From the NCBI GenBank assembly GCA_028710985.1, contig JAQTTB010000001.1:457864-521863 (forward strand): a DNA stretch of 64,000 nt, written 5' to 3'. The notes under the pieces were generated by a model. That model ran no database searches and was not told where the DNA came from. It was given only the letters and a program-made list of their open reading frames with translations. The position numbers were made by a program, and so were the translations under genes. Numbering within the stretch: position 1 is the first letter of the stretch; every line of letters begins with the position of its first letter. Positions 7,146 through 43,579 of this stretch are shown here, one piece after another. The DNA comes from Patescibacteria group bacterium (GTDB taxonomy: Bacteria > Patescibacteriota > Patescibacteriia > JAHJFT01).

Positions 7146-7544
7146 GTGTTGGTTGATTATAAAAACCACATCAAAAATATGATCAAGCGGCTCGGCGAAT
7201 GGGGGGAGGACATTGCGGCCGCTTTTTTAGTTAAAAAAGGATATACCCTGGTTGAGCAAAACTGGCGCTGTGAACTCGGGGAGATTGACTTGGTCATGAA
7301 ATTCAATGATAAGGGAAATGAGGTTTATGCTTTCATCGAAGTCAAGGCTCGCGCCGATACGGAATTTGGATATCCGGAAGAGGCAGTCACCCGGTCAAAG
7401 CTTAATCATCTCGTCGCCGCCTGCGAGGCATATTCATACGAGCATAATTTAAAATCAATCTGGCAAATCGATATCGTGGCGATTATCGGAACGCCATCGT
7501 ACGGGATTAAAGATATCAGGCATTTTTCTAAGTTGGAGCTATAA
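7146..7544 (+). CDS. YraN-family (UPF0102) endonuclease
   Basis: GEDIAAAFLVKKGYTLVEQNWRCELGEIDLVM...EVKAR matches the YraN/UPF0102 core; the true start may be ATG 7179. Confidence 0.7.
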   Translation: MLVDYKNHIKNMIKRLGEWGEDIAAAFLVKKGYTLVEQNWRCELGEIDLVMKFNDKGNEVYAFIEVKARADTEFGYPEEAVTRSKLNHLVAACEAYSYEHNLKSIWQIDIVAIIGTPSYGIKDIRHFSKLEL

Positions 7545-14709: not shown

Positions 14710-14729
14710 CCTGCCTGCCGGCAGGCAGG
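14710..14729. repeat. Perfect 20-bp palindrome CCTGCCTGCCGGCAGGCAGG (copy 2), nested in a larger inverted repeat TCTCTCCCTC...GGGAGAGGCAGAGAGGG
   Basis: Read directly. Confidence 0.9.
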
Positions 14730-16140: not shown

Positions 16141-16743
16141 ATGGATAGCCAAACTCGAAAGCTCTCCAGAGGCGAGAAGTGGAGCTTATTTGTATTAAGC
16201 GCCGCGACTTTGTGTATCGTAATTTTGGCTTCATGGCAGATGAAAAATACGATTTTTTCACCGTTTGTCCAGACGCCAAGTGAGGATACGCGCGCTCTGT
16301 TTGATAATTCACTGCAGCTTGAGGAATTGCGCGGCAAGGACAGCGATAGCGATGGCTTAAGCGACTTTGACGAGCTCTATGTCCACAATACGAGTCCGTA
16401 TCTTCCGGATACTGATTCCGACGGTATGAGCGATTCCGCGGAAATCACTGCCGGTAAAGACCCAAACTGTCCCGAGGGCCAGGAATGCTATATTGACCAG
16501 ACCGGCGGCACCTCGACCGCGGCCGGAGAAACCGAAGAAGTGAATTTGACGGAAAGCGAAAAGGCCGATCTTATGCTCCAGCTTCCGGCCGATGAGATCC
16601 GCGAGCTTCTGAAAAATGCCGGCGTGCCCGAGGAAACGCTCAACCAGCTTACTGACGACGAACTCAAACAGATGGTTGCCGATGTTCTTGCCGAAGAGGG
16701 CGGCTCATTGCCGGCGACCGGCTCAACTTCAACCCAAGAGTAA
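16141..16743 (+). CDS. Membrane-anchored protein with thrombospondin-type-3-like Ca-binding repeats (DSDSDGLSDFDE, DTDSDGMSD)
   Basis: N-terminal TM helix and acidic D-x-D-x-D-G repeats. Confidence 0.5.
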   Translation: MDSQTRKLSRGEKWSLFVLSAATLCIVILASWQMKNTIFSPFVQTPSEDTRALFDNSLQLEELRGKDSDSDGLSDFDELYVHNTSPYLPDTDSDGMSDSAEITAGKDPNCPEGQECYIDQTGGTSTAAGETEEVNLTESEKADLMLQLPADEIRELLKNAGVPEETLNQLTDDELKQMVADVLAEEGGSLPATGSTSTQE

Positions 16744-16747
16744 ATTT

Positions 16748-19700
16748 ATGATGCGTTTAAAACAACAAACAATGCGGACAATCGTTGCGCTTGTTTGTTT
16801 TGTTTTTGTTTGCAATCTCCTGCTCGTGCCGATTCATTACGCGCGCGCTCAACTGGTAGTAACGGATCCGGTTACCGGCCAGGCAGTCACCATAAAAAAT
16901 GTAAAAGATTTTATAAAGACCCTGCTTGTCGGCGTGGCCGGCGTTGCCGTAATTAACGCAGCAAATTATTTCGCACAAAAGCTCGCCTACGACGCCGCCG
17001 TAGCTTTGGTTTCCGGCGGTAAGGGCCAGATGCCGCTTTTTTCCACCAAGGGCTGGGGCGATTATTTTAAAGACGCATCGCTCGGCGCGGTCGGCGAATT
17101 TGTGGGCACTTTGTCCGAAGGATTTGAGGGCCTAGATCTCTGTAATCCCGGTCCGCCCGGCCTTGTGGCAAAACTTCAGACCAGTTTGGTCAAACCATAT
17201 ATTCCGGTGGGCGAAGGCCCGGAGCCAAAATGCGAGTGGAGCAATATTTCCGAAAACTGGACCGAGTTTACCGAAGACTTTACCACCGGCGAGGTTCTTC
17301 AGCGCTCGGGCGTGATGTTTGAACCCGGCCAGTCGCCGCTTTCCATTACCCTTGAAGCCAGCCGCAATCTTTCGGTTCAGGTTTATGAAATGGAAAAATT
17401 AAAAACCCTGGAACGCGAGGAGGGGGAAGGATTTTTGGCCAAGACCGGCATTATTTCCGGCGAGGTCCAGACTCCAGCCCAGGTCATCGCCCAAAAAGCC
17501 AAAGACCTTTCAAAGAGCGGCGAAGAATCCCAGCAAACTAATGTCCAGATGATGGGTTCGGCGCTCGGCGCCGGCGCGACGCAGATTCTCACTTCCGCGC
17601 TTGGCACATTCGTGAATACCCTGGCCGGAAAATTATTGGAAAAAATATTTAACAAGGGTTTAATTAGTTTTCAGAAAAAGGGAAAAAATACCGGCGCACT
17701 CATTAATCCTGAATTTTCGCTCGTCGGCACGCGCGAGGTGGCGCAGGAGATGCAGTCCGATCTGATTACCCCGCCGATTAAAGAGGCCGAGGTTTTTGAT
17801 CAGGTGACTGATTTTTCGGTCTGCCCCTCCCAGTTCGCCAGCCCGAATAACTGCGTAATTGACCAGGGATTTTCCGAAGCCCTGCGGCGGGAACAATCCG
17901 GTACCCCGCTCTCGGTCAAAGAGGCGATTAATCAGGGCCTGCTCCGCGGCGACTGGCCGCTTATTTCCTCGTATGACCGCGCCCGCAACACGGATATTTT
18001 TTGCTACACCTACGGATATTGCTATTCAAATTTAGTCAAACTTCGCAAGGCGCGCATCGTCCCGATCGGTTGGGAAATTGCCGCGCAAAAAAGCGGCGCC
18101 TCGGCTTCGCAGATAACCTTGAGCCAGGCCATGGATGCTTTCTATGACTGCGGAACCGATGCCGATGGCCGGCCGGTTGTGGATTCCGAACATCCGTGGT
18201 GCCACCTCGTCGATCCAAACTGGATTATCAAATATCCGCTTACCCAGTGCCGCGCTTCGGTCTACGGTTCAACCCTGCTCACCGCCGAAAACAGCCTGCG
18301 TTCCGAAACCTGCGTTGATTCGCCGACTTGCATTGCGGTTGATGACGGCGGATCCTGTGTCGGGGGTTGGGGATACTGCACCCGCGAAAAAAATACCTGG
18401 CATTTTGACGGCGACCAGTGTCCGGCGCGTTACGAGTCCTGCATCGCGCTTGAAGACCGGAGCGGCAATCAGGTTTCGTATTTATTAAATACCGTAAATT
18501 ACGGCGCCTGCACTTCGGAAAATGTTGGCTGTCGCTGGTACGCGCGCGAAAAGGCCGGCGACAACTGGACCGCGACCGCAAGTTATAATTCCACGGATAA
18601 AACCATGGTCGCGACCGCGGGCGCCATTTATTTAAACAAAAACGCGGCCGAATGTTCGGCTTCGGACGCCGGCTGCACGGAAATGATCCGTGCCACGGCG
18701 ACCGGAGCGACTTTGAATATTCTGCCCAATCCGAGTTTTGAAACCGCGTCCGCCGAAAATCCGGCCATGCCCGAGAACTGGGTTGCCGCCCGCGATAATT
18801 CCAAATACACCAGCGCGGCAACTACCCTGGACGCCACGGGGGACAAATCTTACGACGGGGTCGCGGCGGTTTCGCCCGGCACCGGCTTAGCCGCCGAAGT
18901 CAAACTCAATGCTTCAAGATTTTACACATTCTCTTTTTACGCGCGGACTTCCAGCCGCGCCACGCTTCTCGCCGGTGTTTCAGTCCTGAAGAGCGATCGT
19001 GTCAAAGCCGATCTCACGCCATATTATTTTTCTGGAACCAATTGCACGCGCGGCACCCAATTTGGCGAAGGCGGGGTAAATGAATCAGTTTATTTTAATC
19101 AGATTGCACCGCCCACCGAATACGCGCGCTATTCCTGCACCTTTACCACTCCGGTTGCCGCGGCTTCGCCCAAGGGATATTTTATCGGCCAGATATTTCT
19201 CTATAGCCAGGACGGCACCTGGATTGACGCCGTCCAGCTTGAAGAATCCGAAACCGTAACCGCGTTTCATGAAGGGATTTCCAGCGGAGCCGGGAGTGTT
19301 TATCTTAAAAAACCGCCCGAATATCTGGGATGCACCGGCGCCTCAACCGATCCGGCCGAATGTTCCAATTATCTGCGCCAATGCCTGGCATCGGATGTCG
19401 GCTGTTCAATGTATTATCCAACAAACGGCGATCCGGCGCTTGCCGCGGTCGCGACCGGCGAGAATATTTGTCCGGCCGAATGCGTCGGCTACGACACCTT
19501 CCGCGAAGAGCCGAGTCAGTGGACCGCCGCGGCCAAATTCCCGCTTTACTTAATTCCGGATACCGCCGAGATGTGTGAAGCGAGTGTCGTGGGCTGCGAT
19601 GAATTTACCAACTTAGATGCCGCTGAAGCTGGTGGGGAATCCAAAAATTATTTCACTTCAATCCGCTCCTGCCAGAAGCCGGCCGCGGACAGCGAAACGT

Positions 19701-22700
19701 TTTATACCTGGGAGGGCTCGGACACCGCCGGCTATCAGCTCAAGACGTGGGTGCTCAAGGCGAGCGACAAGGACGCCGGCCCGTGTACCACGCTCGCGCC
19801 GGGCGGGACCTGTAATGATCCAGCCGTCGGCACCGCGGACTATGACGAGCGCGACTGCTCGGAAGATTTTAAAACCGACGCCAACTGCCGCGAATTTTAC
19901 AATACCGCCGGCGGAATTTTTTATCGCAATTATTCAGATACCATTATTTCCACCGATGAATGCTATCGCTACCGCAAAACCGAAGCAACCGGGGAGGCGG
20001 ATTGCGAATCAACCGGCGGCCAGTGGAGCGCGGCCGGAGAATGCATTTATCTGGGCTATCCGTCCGAGAGCCAGCGCTGCGGCGCCGAATCCGCGGGCTG
20101 CCGCGCCTACACCGGCCCGACGAGCCGCAATGTTGAGGAAGAATTTTTTGACGAATTTGAAAATAACACAACCCAGGATTGGCAGGGCGGGGCCGTGAGC
20201 ACCGAATCCGTCACGCTCGGCGGGCATTCGCTCAAAGCCGCGTCCGGGGCCGCGGTTTCCAAAACCTGGGAATTAACCGCGGGCGAAACTTATATTTTGA
20301 GTTTCTGGGCCAAGGGACAAGGCACGGTGGCCGCGCAAATTGACGGCGAGCCGCTCGGCAGCGTCGCCCTCGGTTCGGAATGGGCAAATTATCAGGTCGG
20401 GCCCCTGCTCATGAGTGAGGCGGGGATAGGTTCAGTGGTTAGCTTCAGCGGATTTGCGGTTGATTCGTATCTGGACAACATCCGGCTCACTCGCGTATCG
20501 GATCATCTTTATTTAATTCGCAACTCCTGGTATACGCCGATGGTGTGCGACATGAATAATCAGGGCGTCTACCTGCCGCGCGCCCAACTCGGTTGCCGCG
20601 CCTACACGGACAGCGAAAATCAGGAAAAATATTTTAAATCATTCGATCGCCTTTGCAGCGAAGGGGCGGTGGGCTGCGAAGCTTTTATTGATACTTACAA
20701 TTCCGCGTCAACCGCGAAACAGATATTCAATCAGGGAGAGGACGGCGCCGAAGTCACGGTGCCCGGCGACACGCTTTCATATTATGTATATGACGAGAAC
20801 ATGGCCTGCGGCGCCGACGCCAAAGGTTGCGAAGCGATGGGTCGCCCGATTTTGGATCAGGATGGTCATACCGTGCTCTCGTACGATGATGTATATCTCG
20901 TGAACGATCCGGAAAATTATTCCAACTCGCTCTGCCTCACCGAAGAAGCCTACTGCGACGAATTCAAGGGCGATACCGGAACTTATTATTTCAAACATCC
21001 GGAAGACAAAACCTGCGAATTTAAGGAAAAGGTGAAAATTGCCGGGCTGGAATATTCGGGTTGGTTCCGCACCGGCACCGAAGACCCGTGCTATGGGTCG
21101 TATCTCGGCGCCGGCAACTCGTACGGTATCTGGAAAAACGGCGACTCGGGCTATGACGCCTGGTACGGCAACTGCCCGGCCGACATGAGCACCTGCACCA
21201 AATTTACCGATCCAGCCGACACTTCGGCCGATGAGCCGCAGGGCAAATCATATTATTATTTGGATAACGACACGCTTGATACTAAGAGCTGCGCTGGTTC
21301 GGCCTCCAAAAGCGCGGGCTGCGCCTTATTTAACAGTACTTCAAAGTCAACCAAGACAGAAAATTCCTGGGCGACTTATCTCACGAGCGAGGACAATAAT
21401 TTCGCCGCTGTTGCCACAATCGATTGCCTCAAAAGCGATAGTCCGTATTGTACCAAGGTTTGCTTTGATAAAGAATTCGGCCCGGAAGCGTTTGTTCCGT
21501 ACCGGTTCGGCCATAACTGTCGCGATGCCGGCGACTGTTCGGGCTACAGGGGTTGCGGTGAGATTTCAAGTTTTGGCAGCAAATGGCGGCACTGGATTCC
21601 GGAACAGAATATTTATCAATACACCGGTTCGTGCGAGGCCGGTTCGGTTTGCGCGGCCGGCAATCCGGGCTGTACCGTCGGCGATCTTTGCGTGGATATG
21701 GCCAAAGAGCTCCTGCGCAATGATTCAAATGAATTATTGAAAGTCCGCCGCGACCGCGAATGCGGCGAGTGGCTGGCGTGCCGCAGTTCGGTTTCGGTCT
21801 GGGACAATGAAACGCAAAAATACAAAAAAATCTGCACCAGCCTCGGGCTTTGCGACGAGTTTGCCCCGGTCGGGGATTCCAGCGAGTGCGTTCATTTTAT
21901 TGAGAGCGAACACGCCGAAGACGTGCTTTCCGAAGCGCTTTACACCGCGCGCGATGTTTCCTGGGAAGGCCAGGATTATTCGGGCTACGCCATTCCGAAT
22001 TATTATTCCATTGACGAGCTTTCGCCCATTGATTTGAGCAGTATTGTCGCCGGTTCAAGCCTGCCGGATTTGCGCGTTGCTTATGTTGAAACCGGCTGCG
22101 GCGCCGGCGTGGCTACTGGCCAGACATGCGGAGACGCGAACGCGCTCGGCAACAAGGGTGTCTGCGTTGCCCAAAAATGCGTTTATGCCATCAACGGCGA
22201 AGCCCTGCCCACGGCCGGAACATCGGCGGAATTATATACGTCGCTTACCGCCGGGGAAAACAAATACCGCGTGGTCGGCCAGTCCTGCCGCGCTTATCCG
22301 GAAGAAGGCGCGCCGTTCCCCTCAAGCGTGGCCGAGTGGGAGAACGGAAAAATGACCACCATTGACCCCAACTTCAAACGCGCCAATATCTGCGAGCAGT
22401 CGATCTGGGAAGATCTGAACAGCGACGGCGTGCGCGATGAAAACGAAATCACGTATCAGGACTGCGAATGCGATTATCAAAAAGTTGAATTTGGAAACGG
22501 CGCGGTCACGAAATTTTATTCCACCAATGAAGTTAATATTCCCAAAGGCATCTGCCTCAATGGCCCGCGTTCCGGGCTTTCGTGCGTGCCGGGCGCGGAA
22601 TACGACGACACCCTGCCGGCCGATTCCGCGGATAATCAAAAAACCTGCGGCGCGATTACTTCGGGCGGCGCCTGCCAGGCGGTTGAGCGCGCCGACAAAT

Positions 22701-25582
22701 TCGTGGGCTGGCTCGGCCAGTGCCTGGAGCGCGATTTGCGCACGCCATTGAACGGCAGCACCGAAGATTTTGCCTGCCTGACCTGGTATCCGTCTTACAT
22801 TCTTTCCGGCGGACAGGATGTTTATAATCTTTTCCCCAATGCCGGATATAATCCGACCAACACCGGCCGCTACTGGTGCGCCGAGGCGCGGGGCATCCGC
22901 AATTCCATTGGACCGACTCGGGCTGGCGAAGATTATGAAGTCATAACGCGCGATAATATTGCCAGTACCACAAAGTGGACAAAAGATCCGCCGGGCGTAT
23001 TATTCCCCGGGGTGCTGTGCACTGGCGCTATTAATTGTCCGGATGCAACGGGCCAGGAAAAGTCCGTGTGCCACGACTTTGGTTCTTACAGCGCCTGTGC
23101 CACGGGTAAATTTTATGGCAGCTATACGGCTTCTGAAGATTCGGCCTGGAATCTTTTGGTCTATACGGCCGACACCAAGGATTATTCAGAAAGATTTTTG
23201 CCGGCAACACAATACGAAAATTATTATCTTGACGAAATCGTTGCCATTGAACTCGCGGTTGACGGCGCGCATAATCCCAAGTTGTGGCCGGATGGCCAAA
23301 ACAGTGATACTGAAGATTTTTACGAAGACGGAAACAATATATTAAGCCGCCAGAATGAAGTTGAATTGAAAAACGGATTCAAAGCCTGGGAAACAAGCTG
23401 GGGCATTCCCGAAGAAACAAAAATTCCGTCAAGCGCTCCGCCGATTCTCACGCAGGCCAATTATGCGTTTTCCGGAGAATATAAATATGAGCATGTAACC
23501 GAAGACGCTTCATGCGAAAATGATTACAGCGATTCAAAGAGCTATTTTGCCATTCGCGCCATCTTTGACGCAAACGGCAAATTCCGCGGATTTTGGACCA
23601 CAACCTGCAATGGCACAAGCAAGCCGCGCGCCTGGGTGAAATTTAAAGTCGTTTTTCACCTTGCGGAAAATTGCGAATCTGTCGCCCAGGTGGTAAAGGC
23701 GAGCGGAGAAAACAAGGCCTATACCGACCGGCTTTATCAGGCAACGAATTTTTTAATGATTGTTGGCAGCGAATATAAATATCCGCAGACTTTCGCGCCC
23801 TTTGGTTCGGCGCAAAGTTACGAGTCGCCGCTTGGCCAAAAATTGCCGTGGATTGTCGGCGATAATCGGAAAGACAAAAATTCTGTCGGTACGCCGGACT
23901 TGAGCCTGATTCCGGAAGATTACACTCTCGCCGGTTCATCCCTTGGTTGTAAGGGCGCATGCGCCAAAGAAGAACTCGATGATTTAAATTTTAATACTTT
24001 AACGCGCGCCCTGGGCAATCTTCAGCAGTTATTTACTGCGGTTTATAAAATATTTGAGTGGGAGCCGGGCTATAAACAGGGCAAATGCGAACCGTCCGGC
24101 GGCTGGTCGGAAGGAACGGGTTTCTATATTCCCTGCAATGGCGAGGGCAACACATGTGATAATGATCCGCCCGGTTCGTGCGTGCAGTCTCTTGAATGCG
24201 ATATCGGTCCGCTCGCCGGCGATCGAAATTGCGCAATAAATGATTATTGCCAGGGCGAGTCCGGATATTGCTATCCAAATCCAGACACCACTGTTTACGG
24301 CGATACCGGCGGCGGACGATATGGGGTGATTGAGGAAGGCGAAGGCATTTGCACCGGCAGCTTGCGCGGCAGCGCGCTGTGCGGCGATATTGAATACCCG
24401 GATGAGGGCACGAATAATTTTCCGTCTCCCGAGGGCACCATCAATTTAACCGTTGACGCCGAACGGGCCGGTGATGAATTCTGTCAGACTTCGGGGGTGT
24501 GTATTGATTGGCATATTAGCGATGGTCAGACAATTTATCAGTGCTATGGCGGGCTAAAACATGGCGAGTCATGCAGCGGACAAAGCGATTGCGGCATTAA
24601 TGCCATGAACGGCTTTTGCGACAGCGGTGTTTGCACGGGCGGCGGCTTTGACAGCATATCGGAAAAAGTTTTCTGTTCCGATAACTCGCAGTGCATAATT
24701 TCAAATGCCATGTGCGCGACAAATGTTTATCGCTGCAGCGACGGACTATTGTCTGGCGCCGAATGTGATCCGGGCTCAAGCATTTGCGGCCAGTCATTTT
24801 CTTGTACAGTAGACGCTGTTCCGGCAGAGCGTGACTTTTACGAAAAGAGCGTTCCGGCCTCTGTCTCCGACACGGCCGAAAGCCAGGGCGTTCCGCCGAC
24901 CGTCGCGGCCATTGATTTTACCAAATGCGATCAATCAACCGGCACCTGCCGCATTGCCAAGCTTAACGGTTTTGATGTGAACAACTGGTATTACGGCACC
25001 ATCACCGGCCAGGAACAGCTCAAGGCAACCATCCGCTTTTATGCCTGGGCCGACCATAATCAGATGCCAATTGTTTCGCGCACCGTGGACTGGGGAGACT
25101 CAAGTCCCAAAGACATGACCTCGGCGAGCAAATACAAAAACTATAAGCCTTATTGCGACAGTGATTCCCTGGAATGTTCGGACGCTCCGGGCATGACCTG
25201 CAAGACATCGAGCGACTGCCCGTCCGGCACCGGCACGTGCCAGCCGGATCTAAGCGGCGTGCCGCACTTTGGCAATGATGACAAAGCCTGCAGCGAGGGA
25301 TTTTTCCAGTTTGAACACACTTATCTTTGCGATGGCGGCGACGAGCTTGGTACTTGTCCGTTCAGCGGTTCGCCGGCTTCGTCAGACAGCATTCCGGCCA
25401 ATGGCTGCAAAACCGCGACTGCCTGTTATTACCGCCCGCGCGTCCAGGTTCAGGATAACTGGGGCTGGTGCAACGGCGACTGCAATGGATTGGGTGAGGG
25501 GTGCTATGAGGATGAATGCTTTATTACAAGGGATGATCCACATTGGACCGAGTTTGATGGCTACATCAAAATAAATAAATAA
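16748..25582 (+). CDS. Giant secreted cysteine-rich protein (2,944 aa), signal peptide, CBM-like NPSFE region
   Basis: Uninterrupted 8.8-kb ORF; start at the ATGATG 5 nt after the upstream stop; N-terminal hydrophobic signal (IVALVCFVFVCNLLLVPIHYARA); very high Cys content. Confidence 0.7.
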   Translation: MMRLKQQTMRTIVALVCFVFVCNLLLVPIHYARAQLVVTDPVTGQAVTIKNVKDFIKTLLVGVAGVAVINAANYFAQKLAYDAAVALVSGGKGQMPLFSTKGWGDYFKDASLGAVGEFVGTLSEGFEGLDLCNPGPPGLVAKLQTSLVKPYIPVGEGPEPKCEWSNISENWTEFTEDFTTGEVLQRSGVMFEPGQSPLSITLEASRNLSVQVYEMEKLKTLEREEGEGFLAKTGIISGEVQTPAQVIAQKAKDLSKSGEESQQTNVQMMGSALGAGATQILTSALGTFVNTLAGKLLEKIFNKGLISFQKKGKNTGALINPEFSLVGTREVAQEMQSDLITPPIKEAEVFDQVTDFSVCPSQFASPNNCVIDQGFSEALRREQSGTPLSVKEAINQGLLRGDWPLISSYDRARNTDIFCYTYGYCYSNLVKLRKARIVPIGWEIAAQKSGASASQITLSQAMDAFYDCGTDADGRPVVDSEHPWCHLVDPNWIIKYPLTQCRASVYGSTLLTAENSLRSETCVDSPTCIAVDDGGSCVGGWGYCTREKNTWHFDGDQCPARYESCIALEDRSGNQVSYLLNTVNYGACTSENVGCRWYAREKAGDNWTATASYNSTDKTMVATAGAIYLNKNAAECSASDAGCTEMIRATATGATLNILPNPSFETASAENPAMPENWVAARDNSKYTSAATTLDATGDKSYDGVAAVSPGTGLAAEVKLNASRFYTFSFYARTSSRATLLAGVSVLKSDRVKADLTPYYFSGTNCTRGTQFGEGGVNESVYFNQIAPPTEYARYSCTFTTPVAAASPKGYFIGQIFLYSQDGTWIDAVQLEESETVTAFHEGISSGAGSVYLKKPPEYLGCTGASTDPAECSNYLRQCLASDVGCSMYYPTNGDPALAAVATGENICPAECVGYDTFREEPSQWTAAAKFPLYLIPDTAEMCEASVVGCDEFTNLDAAEAGGESKNYFTSIRSCQKPAADSETFYTWEGSDTAGYQLKTWVLKASDKDAGPCTTLAPGGTCNDPAVGTADYDERDCSEDFKTDANCREFYNTAGGIFYRNYSDTIISTDECYRYRKTEATGEADCESTGGQWSAAGECIYLGYPSESQRCGAESAGCRAYTGPTSRNVEEEFFDEFENNTTQDWQGGAVSTESVTLGGHSLKAASGAAVSKTWELTAGETYILSFWAKGQGTVAAQIDGEPLGSVALGSEWANYQVGPLLMSEAGIGSVVSFSGFAVDSYLDNIRLTRVSDHLYLIRNSWYTPMVCDMNNQGVYLPRAQLGCRAYTDSENQEKYFKSFDRLCSEGAVGCEAFIDTYNSASTAKQIFNQGEDGAEVTVPGDTLSYYVYDENMACGADAKGCEAMGRPILDQDGHTVLSYDDVYLVNDPENYSNSLCLTEEAYCDEFKGDTGTYYFKHPEDKTCEFKEKVKIAGLEYSGWFRTGTEDPCYGSYLGAGNSYGIWKNGDSGYDAWYGNCPADMSTCTKFTDPADTSADEPQGKSYYYLDNDTLDTKSCAGSASKSAGCALFNSTSKSTKTENSWATYLTSEDNNFAAVATIDCLKSDSPYCTKVCFDKEFGPEAFVPYRFGHNCRDAGDCSGYRGCGEISSFGSKWRHWIPEQNIYQYTGSCEAGSVCAAGNPGCTVGDLCVDMAKELLRNDSNELLKVRRDRECGEWLACRSSVSVWDNETQKYKKICTSLGLCDEFAPVGDSSECVHFIESEHAEDVLSEALYTARDVSWEGQDYSGYAIPNYYSIDELSPIDLSSIVAGSSLPDLRVAYVETGCGAGVATGQTCGDANALGNKGVCVAQKCVYAINGEALPTAGTSAELYTSLTAGENKYRVVGQSCRAYPEEGAPFPSSVAEWENGKMTTIDPNFKRANICEQSIWEDLNSDGVRDENEITYQDCECDYQKVEFGNGAVTKFYSTNEVNIPKGICLNGPRSGLSCVPGAEYDDTLPADSADNQKTCGAITSGGACQAVERADKFVGWLGQCLERDLRTPLNGSTEDFACLTWYPSYILSGGQDVYNLFPNAGYNPTNTGRYWCAEARGIRNSIGPTRAGEDYEVITRDNIASTTKWTKDPPGVLFPGVLCTGAINCPDATGQEKSVCHDFGSYSACATGKFYGSYTASEDSAWNLLVYTADTKDYSERFLPATQYENYYLDEIVAIELAVDGAHNPKLWPDGQNSDTEDFYEDGNNILSRQNEVELKNGFKAWETSWGIPEETKIPSSAPPILTQANYAFSGEYKYEHVTEDASCENDYSDSKSYFAIRAIFDANGKFRGFWTTTCNGTSKPRAWVKFKVVFHLAENCESVAQVVKASGENKAYTDRLYQATNFLMIVGSEYKYPQTFAPFGSAQSYESPLGQKLPWIVGDNRKDKNSVGTPDLSLIPEDYTLAGSSLGCKGACAKEELDDLNFNTLTRALGNLQQLFTAVYKIFEWEPGYKQGKCEPSGGWSEGTGFYIPCNGEGNTCDNDPPGSCVQSLECDIGPLAGDRNCAINDYCQGESGYCYPNPDTTVYGDTGGGRYGVIEEGEGICTGSLRGSALCGDIEYPDEGTNNFPSPEGTINLTVDAERAGDEFCQTSGVCIDWHISDGQTIYQCYGGLKHGESCSGQSDCGINAMNGFCDSGVCTGGGFDSISEKVFCSDNSQCIISNAMCATNVYRCSDGLLSGAECDPGSSICGQSFSCTVDAVPAERDFYEKSVPASVSDTAESQGVPPTVAAIDFTKCDQSTGTCRIAKLNGFDVNNWYYGTITGQEQLKATIRFYAWADHNQMPIVSRTVDWGDSSPKDMTSASKYKNYKPYCDSDSLECSDAPGMTCKTSSDCPSGTGTCQPDLSGVPHFGNDDKACSEGFFQFEHTYLCDGGDELGTCPFSGSPASSDSIPANGCKTATACYYRPRVQVQDNWGWCNGDCNGLGEGCYEDECFITRDDPHWTEFDGYIKINK

Positions 25583-25694: not shown

Positions 25695-26276
25695 TCAGAA
25701 GACGCGCGTGTAAGAAAGGTCGTCAGAACCGAACGAGTTGATGATGTGAATTGTGACGTGGTTGTTGTCCGCGACCGTGCCGGTGATGGTTTCGTCCGCA
25801 TCTTCGTAGCGGAGAGAACTTCCCTCCATGTAGAGGAGACTGGCACCGCAGAGACCATTCACCGTACAGCCATCCTGACCTACGTCGCAGATGCTCGTCG
25901 AGACATCCTCCACCCACCGTCCGGTGAGGTCGTAGTCGCAGGTCGGGACCGCCGGGTCCAGGGAAACATCCACGGGCGTGGTTGTTCCGGATGCCACATC
26001 CACTACGCCGGAGTATTCGTCATATCCGGCGAGCGTGATGCGCACCTGGTACTGTCCGGGTGTGAGGTCGGCGATGACCGTGGGCGTTGTGCCCTTGACC
26101 TCTTCGTTGAGGTACAGGGTCGCGCCGGCGGGCGTGGTGTCCACGGAAAGAATTCCGTAGGTTACCGAGTCTGGCGTTGCGTCCGAGTCGGTCGTGGTGT
26201 CGGCCGGGTTGTCGGTGGTTTCGCACGCGAACGCGAACATGGCCGCCAGGGCCAGGATGATGTATTTCCCCTTCAT
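25695..26276 (-). CDS. PEGA-domain lipoprotein
   Basis: Signal + Cys (AAMFAFAC); GILSVDTTPAGATLYLNEEVKGTTP...LTPGQYQVRITLAGYDEY matches PEGA; GC-rich gene; AGGAGG RBS. Confidence 0.6.
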   Translation of the reverse strand: MKGKYIILALAAMFAFACETTDNPADTTTDSDATPDSVTYGILSVDTTPAGATLYLNEEVKGTTPTVIADLTPGQYQVRITLAGYDEYSGVVDVASGTTTPVDVSLDPAVPTCDYDLTGRWVEDVSTSICDVGQDGCTVNGLCGASLLYMEGSSLRYEDADETITGTVADNNHVTIHIINSFGSDDLSYTRVF

Positions 26277-26421
26277 GATCGTTTCCTCCTATGGTCAATT
26301 CGGGGGTGGTTCAAAGGGCAATGGGCCAGGATTGGTCCATTTTTATTATCGCGCAATTATATCACGGATTCAAGGGCTTGTCAAGGGGGAGACGGTGAAT
26401 ATTTGCGTAATATTCGCCAAA

Positions 26422-27009
26422 TTATTTACACGGATCAAGAATGTTTTTCCAATTTTTGGGATTATTTTTGATGTAATTCGTAATGCGTCGTAAATCCCAT
26501 GCGTCGCGGACGATGTGGTCATAATATGAACGTTGCCATTGAAAATATTCATCCTCGTTTTGATTCGCGATTCGGGTAACCGCGGATTTAAATTCATGGA
26601 TAATTTTTGGCAACAACATTTTATCCCGTTGTACGTCGCGTTGTACGTCGCGTTGTAGGGGTCGCATATATGCGACCCCTACGTCCGTCCATTGCCCGCC
26701 ATGCGAATCGTCCACCCCGTCCGTCCATTGCCCGCCGTACGCATTCCGAATAAATATTAATCCATGAAAATGGTCGGGCATAACAATGTATTGCCCCAAA
26801 TCAATATTCGGAAAATGAATTGGTAAATAATTCCAACATCGGTCCGCGATTTCACCAATCGCTGAACGCCGCATTTCATTTTTTACAATATTTCCAAAAA
26901 AACATTTTTTTCCATCGGTACATATTGTTACATAATATATACTCGGGCGGGAATAATCGCGTTTTTGATATCGGTTTCGTTTTCGCGCGCGTTGATTCAT
27001 GTTAATCAT
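26422..27009 (-). CDS. IS200/IS605-family HUH (Y1) transposase / REP-associated tyrosine transposase (RAYT)-like
   Basis: YYVTICT..., HUH motif MPDHFHGLI, C-terminal WQRSYYDHIVRD; gene contains tandem GTTGTACGTCGC repeats and a 28-bp perfect palindrome GTAGGGGTCGCATATATGCGACCCCTAC. Confidence 0.65.
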   Translation of the reverse strand: MINMNQRARKRNRYQKRDYSRPSIYYVTICTDGKKCFFGNIVKNEMRRSAIGEIADRCWNYLPIHFPNIDLGQYIVMPDHFHGLIFIRNAYGGQWTDGVDDSHGGQWTDVGVAYMRPLQRDVQRDVQRDKMLLPKIIHEFKSAVTRIANQNEDEYFQWQRSYYDHIVRDAWDLRRITNYIKNNPKNWKNILDPCK

Positions 27010-27222
27010 ACGTTCATATCATAACATTGAAAATAATCGACATTCAATCCAAAAATATAATTATTCCATGTCACAATTTACCGACACGCACGCGGGATAT
27101 TGCATAAATATATGAATAACGTTAATGCATAAGAAGACGCGCGAATGTAATTAATTATTTTCAACACCTCAAATTTGACCTAGTCTGATATAAAAATTTA
27201 TAATTAATACATAAACAACAAT

Positions 27223-27888
27223 ATGCGAATGAAAACATACATCATCGCCATTCTCGTTCTCGTTATTTTAGCCGTGATTCTTATTGTCATGATATTCTGG
27301 CAGATGCCGGCAAATCGTCTTGTGCCGCCATTGCCGTCCGAGGAATTATCCGCCGTTCCGCCGGTTGAACCGAACGCGGAACGATTATCAATTTTCGCAA
27401 GCGAAAAATTGGGTTTTGAGATTTCTTACCCCGAATATTTATCCGTGTCGCAAGAAATCGCATTTTATGATCTGGCCGGAGCCTATGAAAAATCCGAAGC
27501 CGCCGGCCGTATTGTCTCCGTGGGCATTGTGCGCTTAAGCGGTTCGTCATCTCAGCCGGATGCCGAATGGAACGATATTTCAATCTACGCGGTTCATCCG
27601 CAGGATATGGGCGCCACCGCCGAGGAATCCGCCGCATTCATCCAAAAGTTTGAAAATGATTTTCCGCAATTCAAAGAACCGGGTGAAAAAATTTCCAGCG
27701 CCGAATCAATTACAATTGGCGGGCTGGATTTTAAAAAAAATATTTCAGAAGCCGCTGCGGGCAAACGGATAACATATATTTATAACTCGTCTCCGGATTC
27801 TTTATACATTATTTCCGCCAAAGCGGCGGGCGCCGAGGTCGGCGGCCTGCTCTCCGAAATCGTGCCGACCTTCAAAGTCAAGCAATAA
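27223..27888 (+). CDS. Membrane-anchored hypothetical protein
   Basis: N-terminal TM helix, 221 aa. Confidence 0.45.
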   Translation: MRMKTYIIAILVLVILAVILIVMIFWQMPANRLVPPLPSEELSAVPPVEPNAERLSIFASEKLGFEISYPEYLSVSQEIAFYDLAGAYEKSEAAGRIVSVGIVRLSGSSSQPDAEWNDISIYAVHPQDMGATAEESAAFIQKFENDFPQFKEPGEKISSAESITIGGLDFKKNISEAAAGKRITYIYNSSPDSLYIISAKAAGAEVGGLLSEIVPTFKVKQ

Positions 27889-41626: not shown

Positions 41627-43579
41627 ATGCCATTCCGACCAAAAGAAGCCGTTGCTCCTGAAGCCAAAACCGGCGCGGTTGCGCCGACCGGCCGCATCGT
41701 GCGGCGCGAGGCCGAGGCGCGCGCCGAGGCCGAGCGAGAACGCATCGTACTTGAAGAAGAGCGCATTTATCGCCGCGGTGTTGTTTCCATCCGCGACCTG
41801 ATCGCGCCGGCCGCTTTTGAAGTAAAACCGAACTATCTCCGGCTCGGCGACAGCTTTTGCCGCACGATTTTTATTGTCACTTATCCGCGCTATGTTTCGG
41901 TTGGATGGGCGACGCCGGTTATCAACTATAATCACACCCTGGATATCGCCATGTTTTTCTATCCAGTCAAGGCGCCGATAATTTTAAAACAGCTCAAGAA
42001 TAAAGTCGGCGTTCTGGAGGCCCAGATCATGGCCGATTCGGAAAAAGGCGCTCCTCGCGATCCGATTCGCGAAACCGCACTCCGCGACATTGAACAGCTT
42101 CGCGACGACCTGACGCAGGGGATTGAGCATTTTTTTCAATTCGCTTTGTACATTACGATTTACGCGAAAGATGTTACGGAACTGGATAAGATATCAACCG
42201 ATATCGAAACCATCTTCGGTTCAAAATTGATTTATTCCAAGCGCGTTCTTTATCAGTCCGAGCAGGGCTTTAATTCCACTGTGCCGCTCGCGAACGACGA
42301 GCTCATGATTACCTTCAATATGAACACCTCGCCGATTGCTTCGTCGTTCCCGTTCACTTCGGCCGAGCTTACTTCGGACAACGGCATACTCTACGGAATA
42401 AACCGCCACAACAACAGCCTGATTCTCTTTGACCGTTTCTCCATGCCGAACGCCAACATGGTTGTTTTTGCCACTTCCGGCGCCGGCAAGAGTTATGCCG
42501 TAAAACTGGAAATCTTGCGCAGCCTGATGCTTGGCACGGATGTTCTCGTCATTGATCCGGAAATGGAATACAAGCACCTTTCCGACGCGGTCGGCGGCAC
42601 CTACATCAATATTTCCCTGGCTTCGGAAAGCAAGATTAATCCGTTCGATCTGCCGCGGCCCATGGGCGAGGATATCAGCACCGAGGATATTATCCGGAGC
42701 GCCGTAATTACTCTCAAGGGTTTGCTCCGCATCATGCTCGGCAAGCTCACTACGGCCGAGGATTCGCTTTTGGATCGCGCGCTTCTTGAAACCTATGCTA
42801 AGCGCGATATTACGCCAAGTTCCGATCTTTCTACCGTCGAGCCGCCGATTATGCAGGATTTGCAGGAAGTGCTCGAGGGCATGGAAGGTACCGGCGATTT
42901 GGTTGTCCGGCTCAAGAAATTCACTGACGGCACATTTGCCGGTCTCTTGAACTCGCCGACCACGGTCACTATGAAAGCCCAGCTCGTGGTCTTCAGCGTG
43001 CGCGATCTTGAGGACGAGCTCCGTCCGATTGCTATCTATACCATCATCAACTACATTTGGAATGTCGTGCGCTCGGAGAGCAAAAAACGCATTCTCACGA
43101 TTGACGAAGCCTGGTGGCTGATGATGCACGAGGACAGCGCAAAATTTATTTTCGCCTTGGTCAAACGCTGCCGGAAATACTATCTCGGCATTACCACCAT
43201 CACGCAGGATGTTAACGATTTTTTGTCCAATCCGTACGGCCGCTCTATTGTCACTAACTCCTCAATGCAGATTCTGATGAAACAGTCGCCGGCCGCGGTT
43301 GATTTGGTGCAAAAAACTTTTCTTCTCACCGAGGGGGAGAAATATCTTCTTCTTGAGTCCGCGGTCGGAGAGGGGATTTTCTTCGCCGGCACAAAGCACG
43401 CGGCGATCAAGGTGGTTGCTTCGTATACCGAGGACCAGCTCATTACCACCGACCCGCGCCAGCTCTTGGAAATAGAAGAATCAAAAAAGCAATTCGCCGA
43501 AGAGGTGCTCGGTCAGTCCGAAGCCCTGCCTGCCGGTAGGCAGGGCGCTTCCGGGGAACCCCCAGCAATAAATATCTAA
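41627..43579 (+). CDS. VirB4/TraC-family type IV secretion ATPase (middle and ATPase domains)
   Basis: IAPAAFEVKPNYLRLGDSFCRTIFIVTYPRYVSVGW; Walker A FATSGAGKS; Walker B ILTIDEAWWLM; C-terminus carries the palindrome insert (EALPAGRQGAS). Confidence 0.8.
   Translation: MPFRPKEAVAPEAKTGAVAPTGRIVRREAEARAEAERERIVLEEERIYRRGVVSIRDLIAPAAFEVKPNYLRLGDSFCRTIFIVTYPRYVSVGWATPVINYNHTLDIAMFFYPVKAPIILKQLKNKVGVLEAQIMADSEKGAPRDPIRETALRDIEQLRDDLTQGIEHFFQFALYITIYAKDVTELDKISTDIETIFGSKLIYSKRVLYQSEQGFNSTVPLANDELMITFNMNTSPIASSFPFTSAELTSDNGILYGINRHNNSLILFDRFSMPNANMVVFATSGAGKSYAVKLEILRSLMLGTDVLVIDPEMEYKHLSDAVGGTYINISLASESKINPFDLPRPMGEDISTEDIIRSAVITLKGLLRIMLGKLTTAEDSLLDRALLETYAKRDITPSSDLSTVEPPIMQDLQEVLEGMEGTGDLVVRLKKFTDGTFAGLLNSPTTVTMKAQLVVFSVRDLEDELRPIAIYTIINYIWNVVRSESKKRILTIDEAWWLMMHEDSAKFIFALVKRCRKYYLGITTITQDVNDFLSNPYGRSIVTNSSMQILMKQSPAAVDLVQKTFLLTEGEKYLLLESAVGEGIFFAGTKHAAIKVVASYTEDQLITTDPRQLLEIEESKKQFAEEVLGQSEALPAGRQGASGEPPAINI
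43526..43545. repeat. Palindrome-family copy 3, CCTGCCTGCCGGTAGGCAGG, in-frame inside the VirB4 CDS
   Basis: Read directly; the same 24-mer is present in the clpC-like gene in the same gene-relative orientation. Confidence 0.9.

Follow-up and report, generated by a model that had tools for sequence, protein, structure and literature searches.

The Y1 proteins were sorted into 12 subclasses by Quentin, Siguier, Chandler and Fichant (2018, BMC Genomics 19:475; PMC6006769). One of these, subclass 2.4, equals group 4 of the REP-associated tyrosine transposases (RAYTs, or TnpAREP; REP, repetitive extragenic palindrome) of Bertels et al. 2017. According to the same source (PMC6006769), members of subclass 2.4, assigned by HMM/MCL, carry the motifs NH[IFV]H, WQ and YIxNNP, have a median length of 194 amino acids (aa), an insertion of 8 aa where alphaB ends and no tail domain, and occur in low copy number, scattered over many phyla. 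A variable insertion at beta3:alphaC is caused by short DNA repeats, and REPs are found in frame between the HuH motif and the Y motif, including a "double foot" type with 5′ GT[AG]G and 3′ C[TC]AC, for which an origin by central deletion of an inverted dimer was suggested. Most of the subclass was reported to show a REPtron arrangement, in which REPs flank the gene. A general account of GTAG-tagged and of intragenic REPs was given by Di Nocera et al. 2013 (PMC3733652). Here we describe a RAYT gene with a double-foot REP inside its coding sequence, found in a 64-kb window, that is, in the whole stretch of 64,000 nt analysed (contig JAQTTB010000001.1 of a Patescibacteria group bacterium, positions 457,864 to 521,863).

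We estimate at roughly 85% the probability that this gene is an intact, single-copy, vertically inherited RAYT of subclass 2.4, with a REP-derived middle block that is read in frame and encodes a disordered surface loop. An intragenic REP in its own RAYT gene was already described for the subclass in 2018, and the window presents a new example, from a lineage of the candidate phyla radiation (CPR), and no new phenomenon. In a literature search, no paper besides PMC6006769 was found to describe REPs inside RAYT genes.

The gene product and its assignment

A search with the 195-aa protein produced 76 homologs. Twelve positions are invariant in an alignment of 45 homologs (R13, Y19, G39, G52, M77, H80, H82, K141, W158, Q159, Y179 and I180), and the window protein has all of them. 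Used alone in a phmmer search against the PDB, the window protein gave nothing at E <= 1; the profile of the 45-homolog alignment gave a sole match, to the Escherichia coli TnpAREP entry 4ER8, with E = 1e-7. This structure is reportedly the work of Messing and colleagues in 2012. The alignment with 4ER8 pairs MPDHvHg with LPEHMHC, WQrsyydhiir with WQPRFWEHAIR (residues 94-104) and YIknnP with YIYINP, where the numbering Y115-P120 of the last motif is a residue count taken from the profile alignment. The gene and its motifs are as follows.

26422..27009, minus strand: RAYT (TnpAREP) gene, 195 aa; based on the list of open reading frames (ORFs), Pfam, homologs, the profile match to 4ER8 and the AlphaFold2 (AF2) model
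26761..26778, minus strand: HuH motif P78-D-H80-F-H82-G83; H80 and H82 invariant in 45 homologs, aligned with HMH (PEHMH) of 4ER8, in strand E80-87 of the model
26506..26538, minus strand: W motif W158-Q-R-S-Y-Y-D164-H165-I-V-R168, predicted GTAG-recognition region; aligned with 4ER8 94-104, W158 and Q159 invariant
26458..26475, minus strand: Y motif Y179-I-K-N-N-P184, with the predicted catalytic Tyr; Y179 and I180 invariant, aligned with YIYINP of 4ER8, in helix H170-181 of the model

Y179 is taken as the catalytic tyrosine because YIknnP aligns with YIYINP of 4ER8. The motif is of the Y---NP form that characterizes class 2, as opposed to Y---Q in IS200 (PMC6006769). In E. coli TnpAREP the GTAG is contacted by W94, Q95, E100, H101 and R104 (PMC6006769), and W158, Q159, D164, H165 and R168 of the window protein match these positions one for one in the alignment; WQRSYYDHIVR is the predicted GTAG-recognition motif. 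A preliminary description of this DNA had instead named WQRSYYDHIVRD as the Tyr motif. That segment aligns with W94-R104 of 4ER8, the GTAG-recognition region, and the tyrosine predicted to be catalytic lies further on, in YIKNNP.

Matches to domain models and structures agree with this placement. Pfam PF01797 Y1_Tnp ("Transposase IS200 like") scores 24.5 bits and passes the gathering threshold of 23; since the insert interrupts the domain, only its C-terminal part matches (residues 130-183). The AF2 model has a predicted local distance difference test (pLDDT) score of 82 overall and > 90 in the core, with its elements in the expected order, beta-alpha-beta-beta(HuH)...alphaC-beta-alphaD(Tyr). 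When the model was compared with the PDB by Foldseek, 26 matches were obtained at E <= 1e-3, all of them Y1 transposases (IS608, ISDra2, IS200 and 4ER8). The best E-values belong to the TnpA proteins of IS608 and ISDra2, whereas 4ER8 ranks first by query TM-score (0.52) and has the smallest root-mean-square deviation (rmsd, 5.1). The protein ends 11 residues past the Y motif and has no C-terminal tail domain.

The ORF possibly starts at Met4 (27000), which would match the 192-aa product called in Logan assemblies of the same organism. The NCBI call MDD4995277.1 ("transposase", Patescibacteria group bacterium, contig of 744,538 bp) consists of the C-terminal 119 aa only, from Met77 (window 26422-26778), and is without the N-terminal 76 residues, which do align with homologs. 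For annotation, the case illustrates that such genes may be truncated (here to 119 of 195 aa) or mistaken for decaying ones.

On sequence comparison and modelled fold, the ORF is a RAYT (TnpAREP), a Y1 HUH endonuclease/transferase predicted to act on single-stranded DNA (ssDNA), and not an ordinary IS200. The RAYT-type Y1 HUH protein proposed in the preliminary description is borne out by the Pfam score, the profile match to 4ER8, the fold match, the Y---NP motif, and the lack of insertion sequence (IS) ends and of tnpB at the locus. The gene shares with subclass 2.4 the WQ and YIKNNP motifs, a length of 195 aa (median 194), a beta3:alphaC insertion made of repeats, and an in-frame double-foot REP. 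In all features tested but one, the HuH motif DHFH, it appears to fit TnpAY1 class 2, subclass 2.4 (Bertels group 4).

The REP-derived block and its conservation

Between the HuH strand and helix alphaC the gene contains a block of repeats, composed of the following elements.

26623..26745, minus strand: GC-rich, REP-derived variable block, residues 89-129 (NAYGGQWTDGVDDSHGGQWTDVGVAYMRPLQRDVQRDVQRD), forming the loop that leads from the HuH strand (beta3) to helix alphaC
26655-26682, no strand assigned: intragenic double-foot REP, the 28-nt perfect palindrome GTAGGGGTCGCATATATGCGACCCCTAC, with 14+14-nt arms and no loop
26627-26657, no strand assigned: 12-nt tandem array of 2.6 copies (CGTTGTACGTCG), encoding QRDVQRDVQRD; found by Tandem Repeats Finder (TRF), period 12, 100% matches
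26673-26744, no strand assigned: 36-nt direct repeat of two copies, 81% identical, encoding GGQWTDGVDDSHGGQWTD; found by repeat search, copy 1 starting in the REP arm

The GC content of the block is ~63%, compared with 31-44% in the remainder of the gene. Differences in length and sequence among the aligned homologs fall exactly at residues 89-129, and the repeat-encoded residues 97-120 have pLDDT < 50 in the AF2 model, except for residue 107. The REP is laid out as GTAG-GGGTCGCATA|TATGCGACCC-CTAC, in pattern form GTAGGGGNCGCA(N4)TGCGNCCCCTAC, and is translated V-G-V-A-Y-M-R-P-L. With a length of 28 nt, within the 20-40 bp range, a GTAG 5′ end and a CTAC 3′ end, it agrees with the definition of the GTAG-tagged REP superfamily (Di Nocera et al. 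2013). By simple arithmetic, a perfect palindrome of 28 nt is expected by chance ~2e-4 times per 64 kb. Folding of the block as ssDNA centres on the palindrome (z = -3.6 relative to shuffles). A scan of 26200-27300 against Rfam gave only a chance-level miRNA match (E = 0.37).

The repeats on either side are related to the REP itself. The 12-nt array abuts and overlaps the REP foot, and each of its units is the foot-proximal sequence with GTAC replacing GTAG. The core of the 36-nt repeat is CGTCCGTCCATTGCCCGCC, present twice (26682-26700 and 26718-26736), and copy 2 can be read as a degenerate arm (CGTCCACCCC for CGACCCCTAC), probably the remnant of a second REP unit. The palindrome, the 12-mer and the CGTCCGTCCATTGCCCGCC motif have no other occurrence in the 64-kb window at <= 3 mismatches, and ~0 in dinucleotide shuffles. 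We read the GC-rich block as REP-derived DNA and not as a sign of decay; it consists of one intact double-foot GTAG hairpin with partial duplicates of arm and foot on both sides. All the sequence features given in the preliminary description are present, to within 2-3 nt, as is the 195-aa ORF with the exact peptide quoted. The palindrome too had been seen there; that it is a REP, of a type published in frame in this subclass of RAYTs, had gone unrecognised.

An ortholog in a Logan assembly (L082) allows selection on the gene to be estimated. It has 77% protein identity and occupies the same locus: the upstream neighbours are homologous, and the downstream promoter is shared. The ratio of nonsynonymous to synonymous substitution rates (dN/dS) is 0.12 in the core, at a synonymous divergence (dS) of 0.56. 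In the loop outside the REP dN/dS is 0.79, with indels of 36 nt and 12 nt, and all indels between the two genes are multiples of 3. The catalytic core is under purifying selection, and the loop, poorly predicted in the model, evolves almost neutrally through indels in multiples of three. Within this loop, the REP 28-mer and the 12-nt array are both 100% conserved. Together they form the longest exact block shared by the two genes, 57 nt at 26627-26683, corresponding to 19 codons with zero synonymous change. L082 holds one extra 36-nt unit, the core of which was read as a degenerate REP (CACGCATATTTGCGGCC); this unit and the second 36-nt unit of the window are consistent with decayed sister REPs.

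The comparison was extended to the family as a whole. A genome scan with a 13-sequence alignment gave 80 loci, from Bacteroidota, Chloroflexota, Cyanobacteria, Ignavibacteria, CPR (Dojkabacteria, Peribacteria) and others; from these, together with L081 (obtained by protein look-up) and the window gene, 75 scoreable genes were drawn. A hairpin was counted as strong if it had a perfect stem of >= 9 bp, was >= 40% GC and lay in the interval from HuH to W. Strong hairpins occur in 63% of the 75 genes, compared with 4% in N-terminal coding DNA of equal length and 0.8% in shuffled intervals, which leaves ~37% without one; stems of >= 14 bp are found in 33%. Double-foot GTRG...CYAC palindromes number at least 24 among the 75 genes, many of them exactly 28 nt long, so that the same REP architecture recurs at the same gene position in relatives. 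The length of the interval ranges from 41 to 125 aa. Tandem arrays are present in this interval in 24 of 75 genes and in 2 of 75 controls, often duplicating the REP foot and arm, with a period divisible by 3 in 19 of the 24. Because such arrays are common in the intervals of relatives, the 12-nt and 36-nt repeats of the window are regarded as a family trait.

The reading frame of the hairpin is informative. The GTRG foot is read in frame 0 (GTA = Val) in 15 genes and in frame 1 in 9, and in none is it read in frame 2, which would give a TAG stop. For instance, the identical REP GTAGGGGCACGGCATGCCGTGCCCCTAC is translated VGARHAVPL in L011 and RGTACRAPT in L007 and L015. One REP translated in two frames, and never in the TAG frame, indicates a constraint on the DNA and not on the peptide. 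The stem also varies in a compensatory manner, with GGGGTCGCA/TGCGACCCC in the window, L082 and L085 and GGGGACGCA/TGCGTCCCC in L081 and L083. Covariation of stem positions is seen in the peptides too, as G..P versus E..S, mirroring GGG/CCC versus GAG/CTC, and the hairpin is kept with compensatory changes in relatives of only 41-45% identity. Throughout the family it is thus as DNA that the hairpin is maintained, whichever of the two frames it is read in.

REP copies outside the gene and rival explanations

Within the window the intragenic REP stands alone. The 64 kb contain no other strong hairpin with a GT[AG]G foot, and no other copy of the REP arm at <= 1 mismatch. Zero copies in ~63 kb set, by Poisson arithmetic and if copies are evenly spread, an upper bound of ~35 per 744 kb at 95%. 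The RAYT gene is itself single-copy in the window. In a metagenome scan for GTAGGGGTCGCANNNNTGCGACCCCTAC, 31 contigs were found, with the match inside a RAYT gene in only 2 (L085 and L093). The exact 28-mer of the window occurs outside any RAYT in 8 metagenome contigs, in intergenic DNA and in unrelated genes. L085 combines an intragenic REP copy with another that lies 28 nt upstream of the start codon, a REPtron arrangement. Among related loci with a scored intragenic palindrome, about a third have REP copies within ~100 nt of the gene; for about two thirds of related loci, the 10-kb flanks contain none. In L090 (6699-7616) the exact 28-nt REP (7392-7419) is translated in frame, as VGVAYMRPLQ, in the Por_Secre_tail domain (C-terminal sorting domain of the type IX secretion system, T9SS) of an unrelated 305-aa protein. 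A further lesson for annotation is that unrelated proteins contain the same peptides, VGVAYMRPL for instance, where these are encoded by a REP.

The preliminary description had raised the possibility that the RAYT mobilises other palindrome families of the window. With the intragenic hairpin the only strong one with a GTAG foot in 64 kb, this was not supported. A recurring perfect or near-perfect palindrome, (AG)CCTGCCTGCCGGCAGGCAGG(CT), lies at 1390-1413, 14710-14729 and 43523-43546 and is probably one of the families meant. It was considered as a cognate REP and rejected, since it lacks a GT[AG]G foot and does not resemble the intragenic REP.

Alternatively, the intragenic REP may have a function in cis instead of being a passenger that is tolerated, which we hold to be possible but unlikely. 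As a protected "master copy" it could ensure that REP and RAYT are inherited together. It could also serve autoregulation, through binding or nicking of the intragenic hairpin by the enzyme, or through a hairpin in the mRNA that limits how much of a potentially toxic nuclease is translated. The REP and the 12-mer array form the longest exact block (57 nt, 19 codons) at a core dS of 0.56, in a loop with dN/dS of 0.79 elsewhere; the REP is the sole copy in 64 kb, copies are likewise absent from the 10-kb flanks of some two thirds of the related loci, and the hairpin is retained with compensatory changes at 41-45% identity. However, the ~37% of related genes that lack a strong hairpin show that it is not essential to the family, even syntenic orthologs differ in REP number (0 to 3), and the exact conservation comes from a single ortholog pair, for which recent recombination or hairpin-templated repair could account. 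A specific form of this idea, that the only REP of the RAYT in this small CPR genome may be the intragenic copy, kept with the 12-mer array by DNA-level selection as a cis element, is likewise doubtful. If true, the intragenic REP would be a protected seed that holds enzyme and substrate together through vertical or horizontal transfer, or a site for self-recognition or for throttling of translation. A different constraint would be selection for a functional peptide motif (VGxAxxRPL), with the palindrome as its by-product. Similar peptides (VGDAxLRPL, VGVAYMRPL) do recur in the closest subgroup; nevertheless, the same DNA palindrome gives unrelated peptides in two frames, the stem positions co-vary (GGG/CCC versus GAG/CTC), the region is predicted to be disordered and the same 28-mer is found in intergenic DNA and unrelated genes, which makes this explanation highly improbable.

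An ordinary IS of the IS200/IS605 family, whose transposase gene happens to hold repeats, would account for the name of the Pfam match, for IS608 and ISDra2 TnpA giving the best Foldseek E-values, and for the AT-rich island in ~60% GC DNA, which suggests a foreign origin. It is nonetheless very improbable: the Y motif is YIKNNP of the class 2 Y---NP form and not Y---Q, the protein has 195 aa against ~150 aa, and the 64 kb hold neither a second copy nor, at this locus, a tnpB neighbour or convincing IS ends. Moreover, the ortholog lies at the same locus with the same neighbours, and dN/dS in the core is 0.12. The preliminary description also suspected that the gene is decaying, and tandem and direct repeats, a low-complexity peptide and an NCBI annotation of only the C-terminal 119 aa could indeed suggest a pseudogene with junk produced by replication slippage. 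This we consider barely tenable, as no stop interrupts the frame anywhere in the region homologous to relatives, all 12 of 12 family-invariant residues are kept, the core is under strong purifying selection, and indels relative to the ortholog are all multiples of 3. The repeats are moreover family-wide, similar ones being present in a third of the relatives, 19 of 24 with a period divisible by 3, and a 192-aa product is called in other assemblies.

Some observations weigh against an intact subclass 2.4 RAYT with a passively tolerated REP, the reading that we prefer. The HuH motif is DHFH, where the consensus of the subclass is NH[IFV]H; D in place of N is found in 5 of the 75 related genes (L001, L003, L043, L064 and L078). 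The NCBIfam equivalog NF047646 REP_Tyr_transpos reaches 46.4 bits, in two stretches divided by the insert, and stays below its cutoff of 80. In comparison with the REPtrons of the subclass, there is no flanking REP within 1 kb, nor a second copy in the 64 kb; the flanking REP pairs for which a check had been proposed are thus absent. The putative cognate relation between enzyme and REP is drawn by analogy with E. coli TnpAREP. Finally, the perfect conservation of REP and 12-mer between orthologs could mean a function beyond that of a passive passenger.

Neighbouring genes of the RAYT encode a PEGA-domain protein, a protein whose only match, to PsbP_2, is below threshold, and an M23 peptidase; no tnpB neighbour and no convincing terminal hairpins or IS ends were found at the locus. 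Weak AT-rich inverted repeats were considered as IS ends (e.g. 26460-26477 / 27021-27038, 83%) and dismissed as chance, one arm lying in the YIKNNP codons and the region of the upstream arm being unconserved in L082. The gene and both intergenic regions form an AT-rich island (~26300-27250, 25-45% GC) between genes of ~60% GC. The island is consistent with foreign origin, yet the locus is common to a relative at dS ~0.56. A perfect sigma-70 consensus promoter lies at 26356-26384 on the minus strand (TTGACA, 17 nt, TG-TATAAT, 12/12), 38 nt downstream of the RAYT stop, and points at the PEGA-domain gene (26276..25695). Its -35 hexamer is kept in L082, the contig of which ends inside the -10 hexamer (TATTAT). 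Just past the RAYT stop is a 10-bp hairpin at 26394-26418 (GGCGAATATT-ACGCA-AATATTCACC, minus strand), also present in L082, where the mismatch is a different one. Lacking both a T-run on the gene strand and a GTAG foot, it may stabilise the 3′ end of the mRNA. A 2988-aa ORF (16616-25582, plus strand) adjoins the PEGA-domain gene; sister assemblies call it at 2936 aa, with a faint CBM_4_9 match only.

Origin of the double-foot REP and comparison with known systems

Three syntenic orthologs, L118, L119 and L081, in which the order is AIRS-domain gene, RAYT and dprA, differ in the form of the REP. L118 (6285-6455) has an inverted REP pair, GTAGGGGACGCATTCTTGCGTCCCGT ... ACGGGACGCAAGAATGCGTCCCCTAC, with a spacer of ~120 nt, which constitutes an in-frame REPIN. 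In L119 (about 1640-1730) the spacer of the inverted pair is ~46 nt, and in L081 (10307-10334) there is a single double-foot REP, GTAGGGGACGCAGATCTGCGTCCCCTAC. The series fits the published suggestion that a double-foot REP would arise by central deletion of an inverted dimer. Separately, the RAYT gene of L083 contains a 60-nt perfect palindrome (1210-1269, 30+30) around the same REP core as that of the window, with a compensatory T/A to A/T swap, translated ...VVVDASVGDAYMRPLQRRPQRD....

A possible pathway can be proposed from the biology of E. coli TnpAREP and IS608. The REP would be of the enzyme's own cognate substrate type, recognised, as in E. coli TnpAREP, through the W/Q...D-H...R motif. 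REP ssDNA would be cut and rejoined by the HuH motif together with Tyr179, as the E. coli TnpAREP and IS608 precedents suggest. If the enzyme acts preferentially in cis, REPs would land near or in the gene, and only in-frame, stop-free insertions in the tolerant beta3-alphaC loop would survive. An inverted REP pair (REPIN) could then be turned into a double-foot REP by central deletion, and the flanking tandem half-units could result from hairpin-promoted slippage or from nick-and-rejoin at the foot. The loop would afterwards evolve through duplication and deletion of units.

The function of RAYTs is still an open question, and a subclass that carries its own REP in the gene offers a compact system for studying hairpin recognition and the role of the intragenic copy. 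To the published account the present locus adds an example from CPR/Patescibacteria without another REP in 64 kb. A second contribution is a DNA-level constraint on the hairpin, visible in two frames, in compensatory changes and in a sequence unchanged between orthologs at a core dS of 0.56. The third is a natural series from long-spacer REPIN through short-spacer REPIN to double-foot REP, which supports the suggested origin.

Compared with the described members of subclass 2.4, the window gene differs in its host, a metagenome-assembled genome (MAG) of Patescibacteria (CPR), a group unmentioned in PMC6006769. With IS200, IS608 and ISDra2 TnpA (subclass 1.1) it shares the fold and the HuH motif with a single catalytic Tyr. 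Recognition of ssDNA hairpins, a feature of those enzymes, is counted as a further likeness, being predicted for the window protein. Features of IS200/IS605 TnpA not seen here are Y[IV]ENQ (Y---Q), a core-only protein of ~150 aa, multiple copies, subterminal hairpins and a frequent tnpB.

E. coli TnpAREP (4ER8, subclass 2.2) resembles the window RAYT in its Y1 HUH fold, in the aligned HuH, W and Y---NP motifs and in a REP with a GTAG foot, while the two proteins have ~12% identity. In E. coli the REPs lie on the flanks of the gene and not within it, and the window RAYT is the reverse; the REPs of E. coli have a single foot and an imperfect, bulged stem, whereas that of the window is double-foot and perfect. 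Relative to the GTAG-tagged REP superfamily (Di Nocera et al. 2013), the window REP is present as one copy in 64 kb, with no high-copy intergenic dispersal there. It is akin to the intragenic GTAG REPs and the Rickettsia palindromic elements (PMC3733652) in being a short palindromic mobile repeat that is translated in frame and tolerated in loops. Unlike those cases, the host gene is that of the REP's own presumed transposase, and the site of the REP is constant across the whole subclass.

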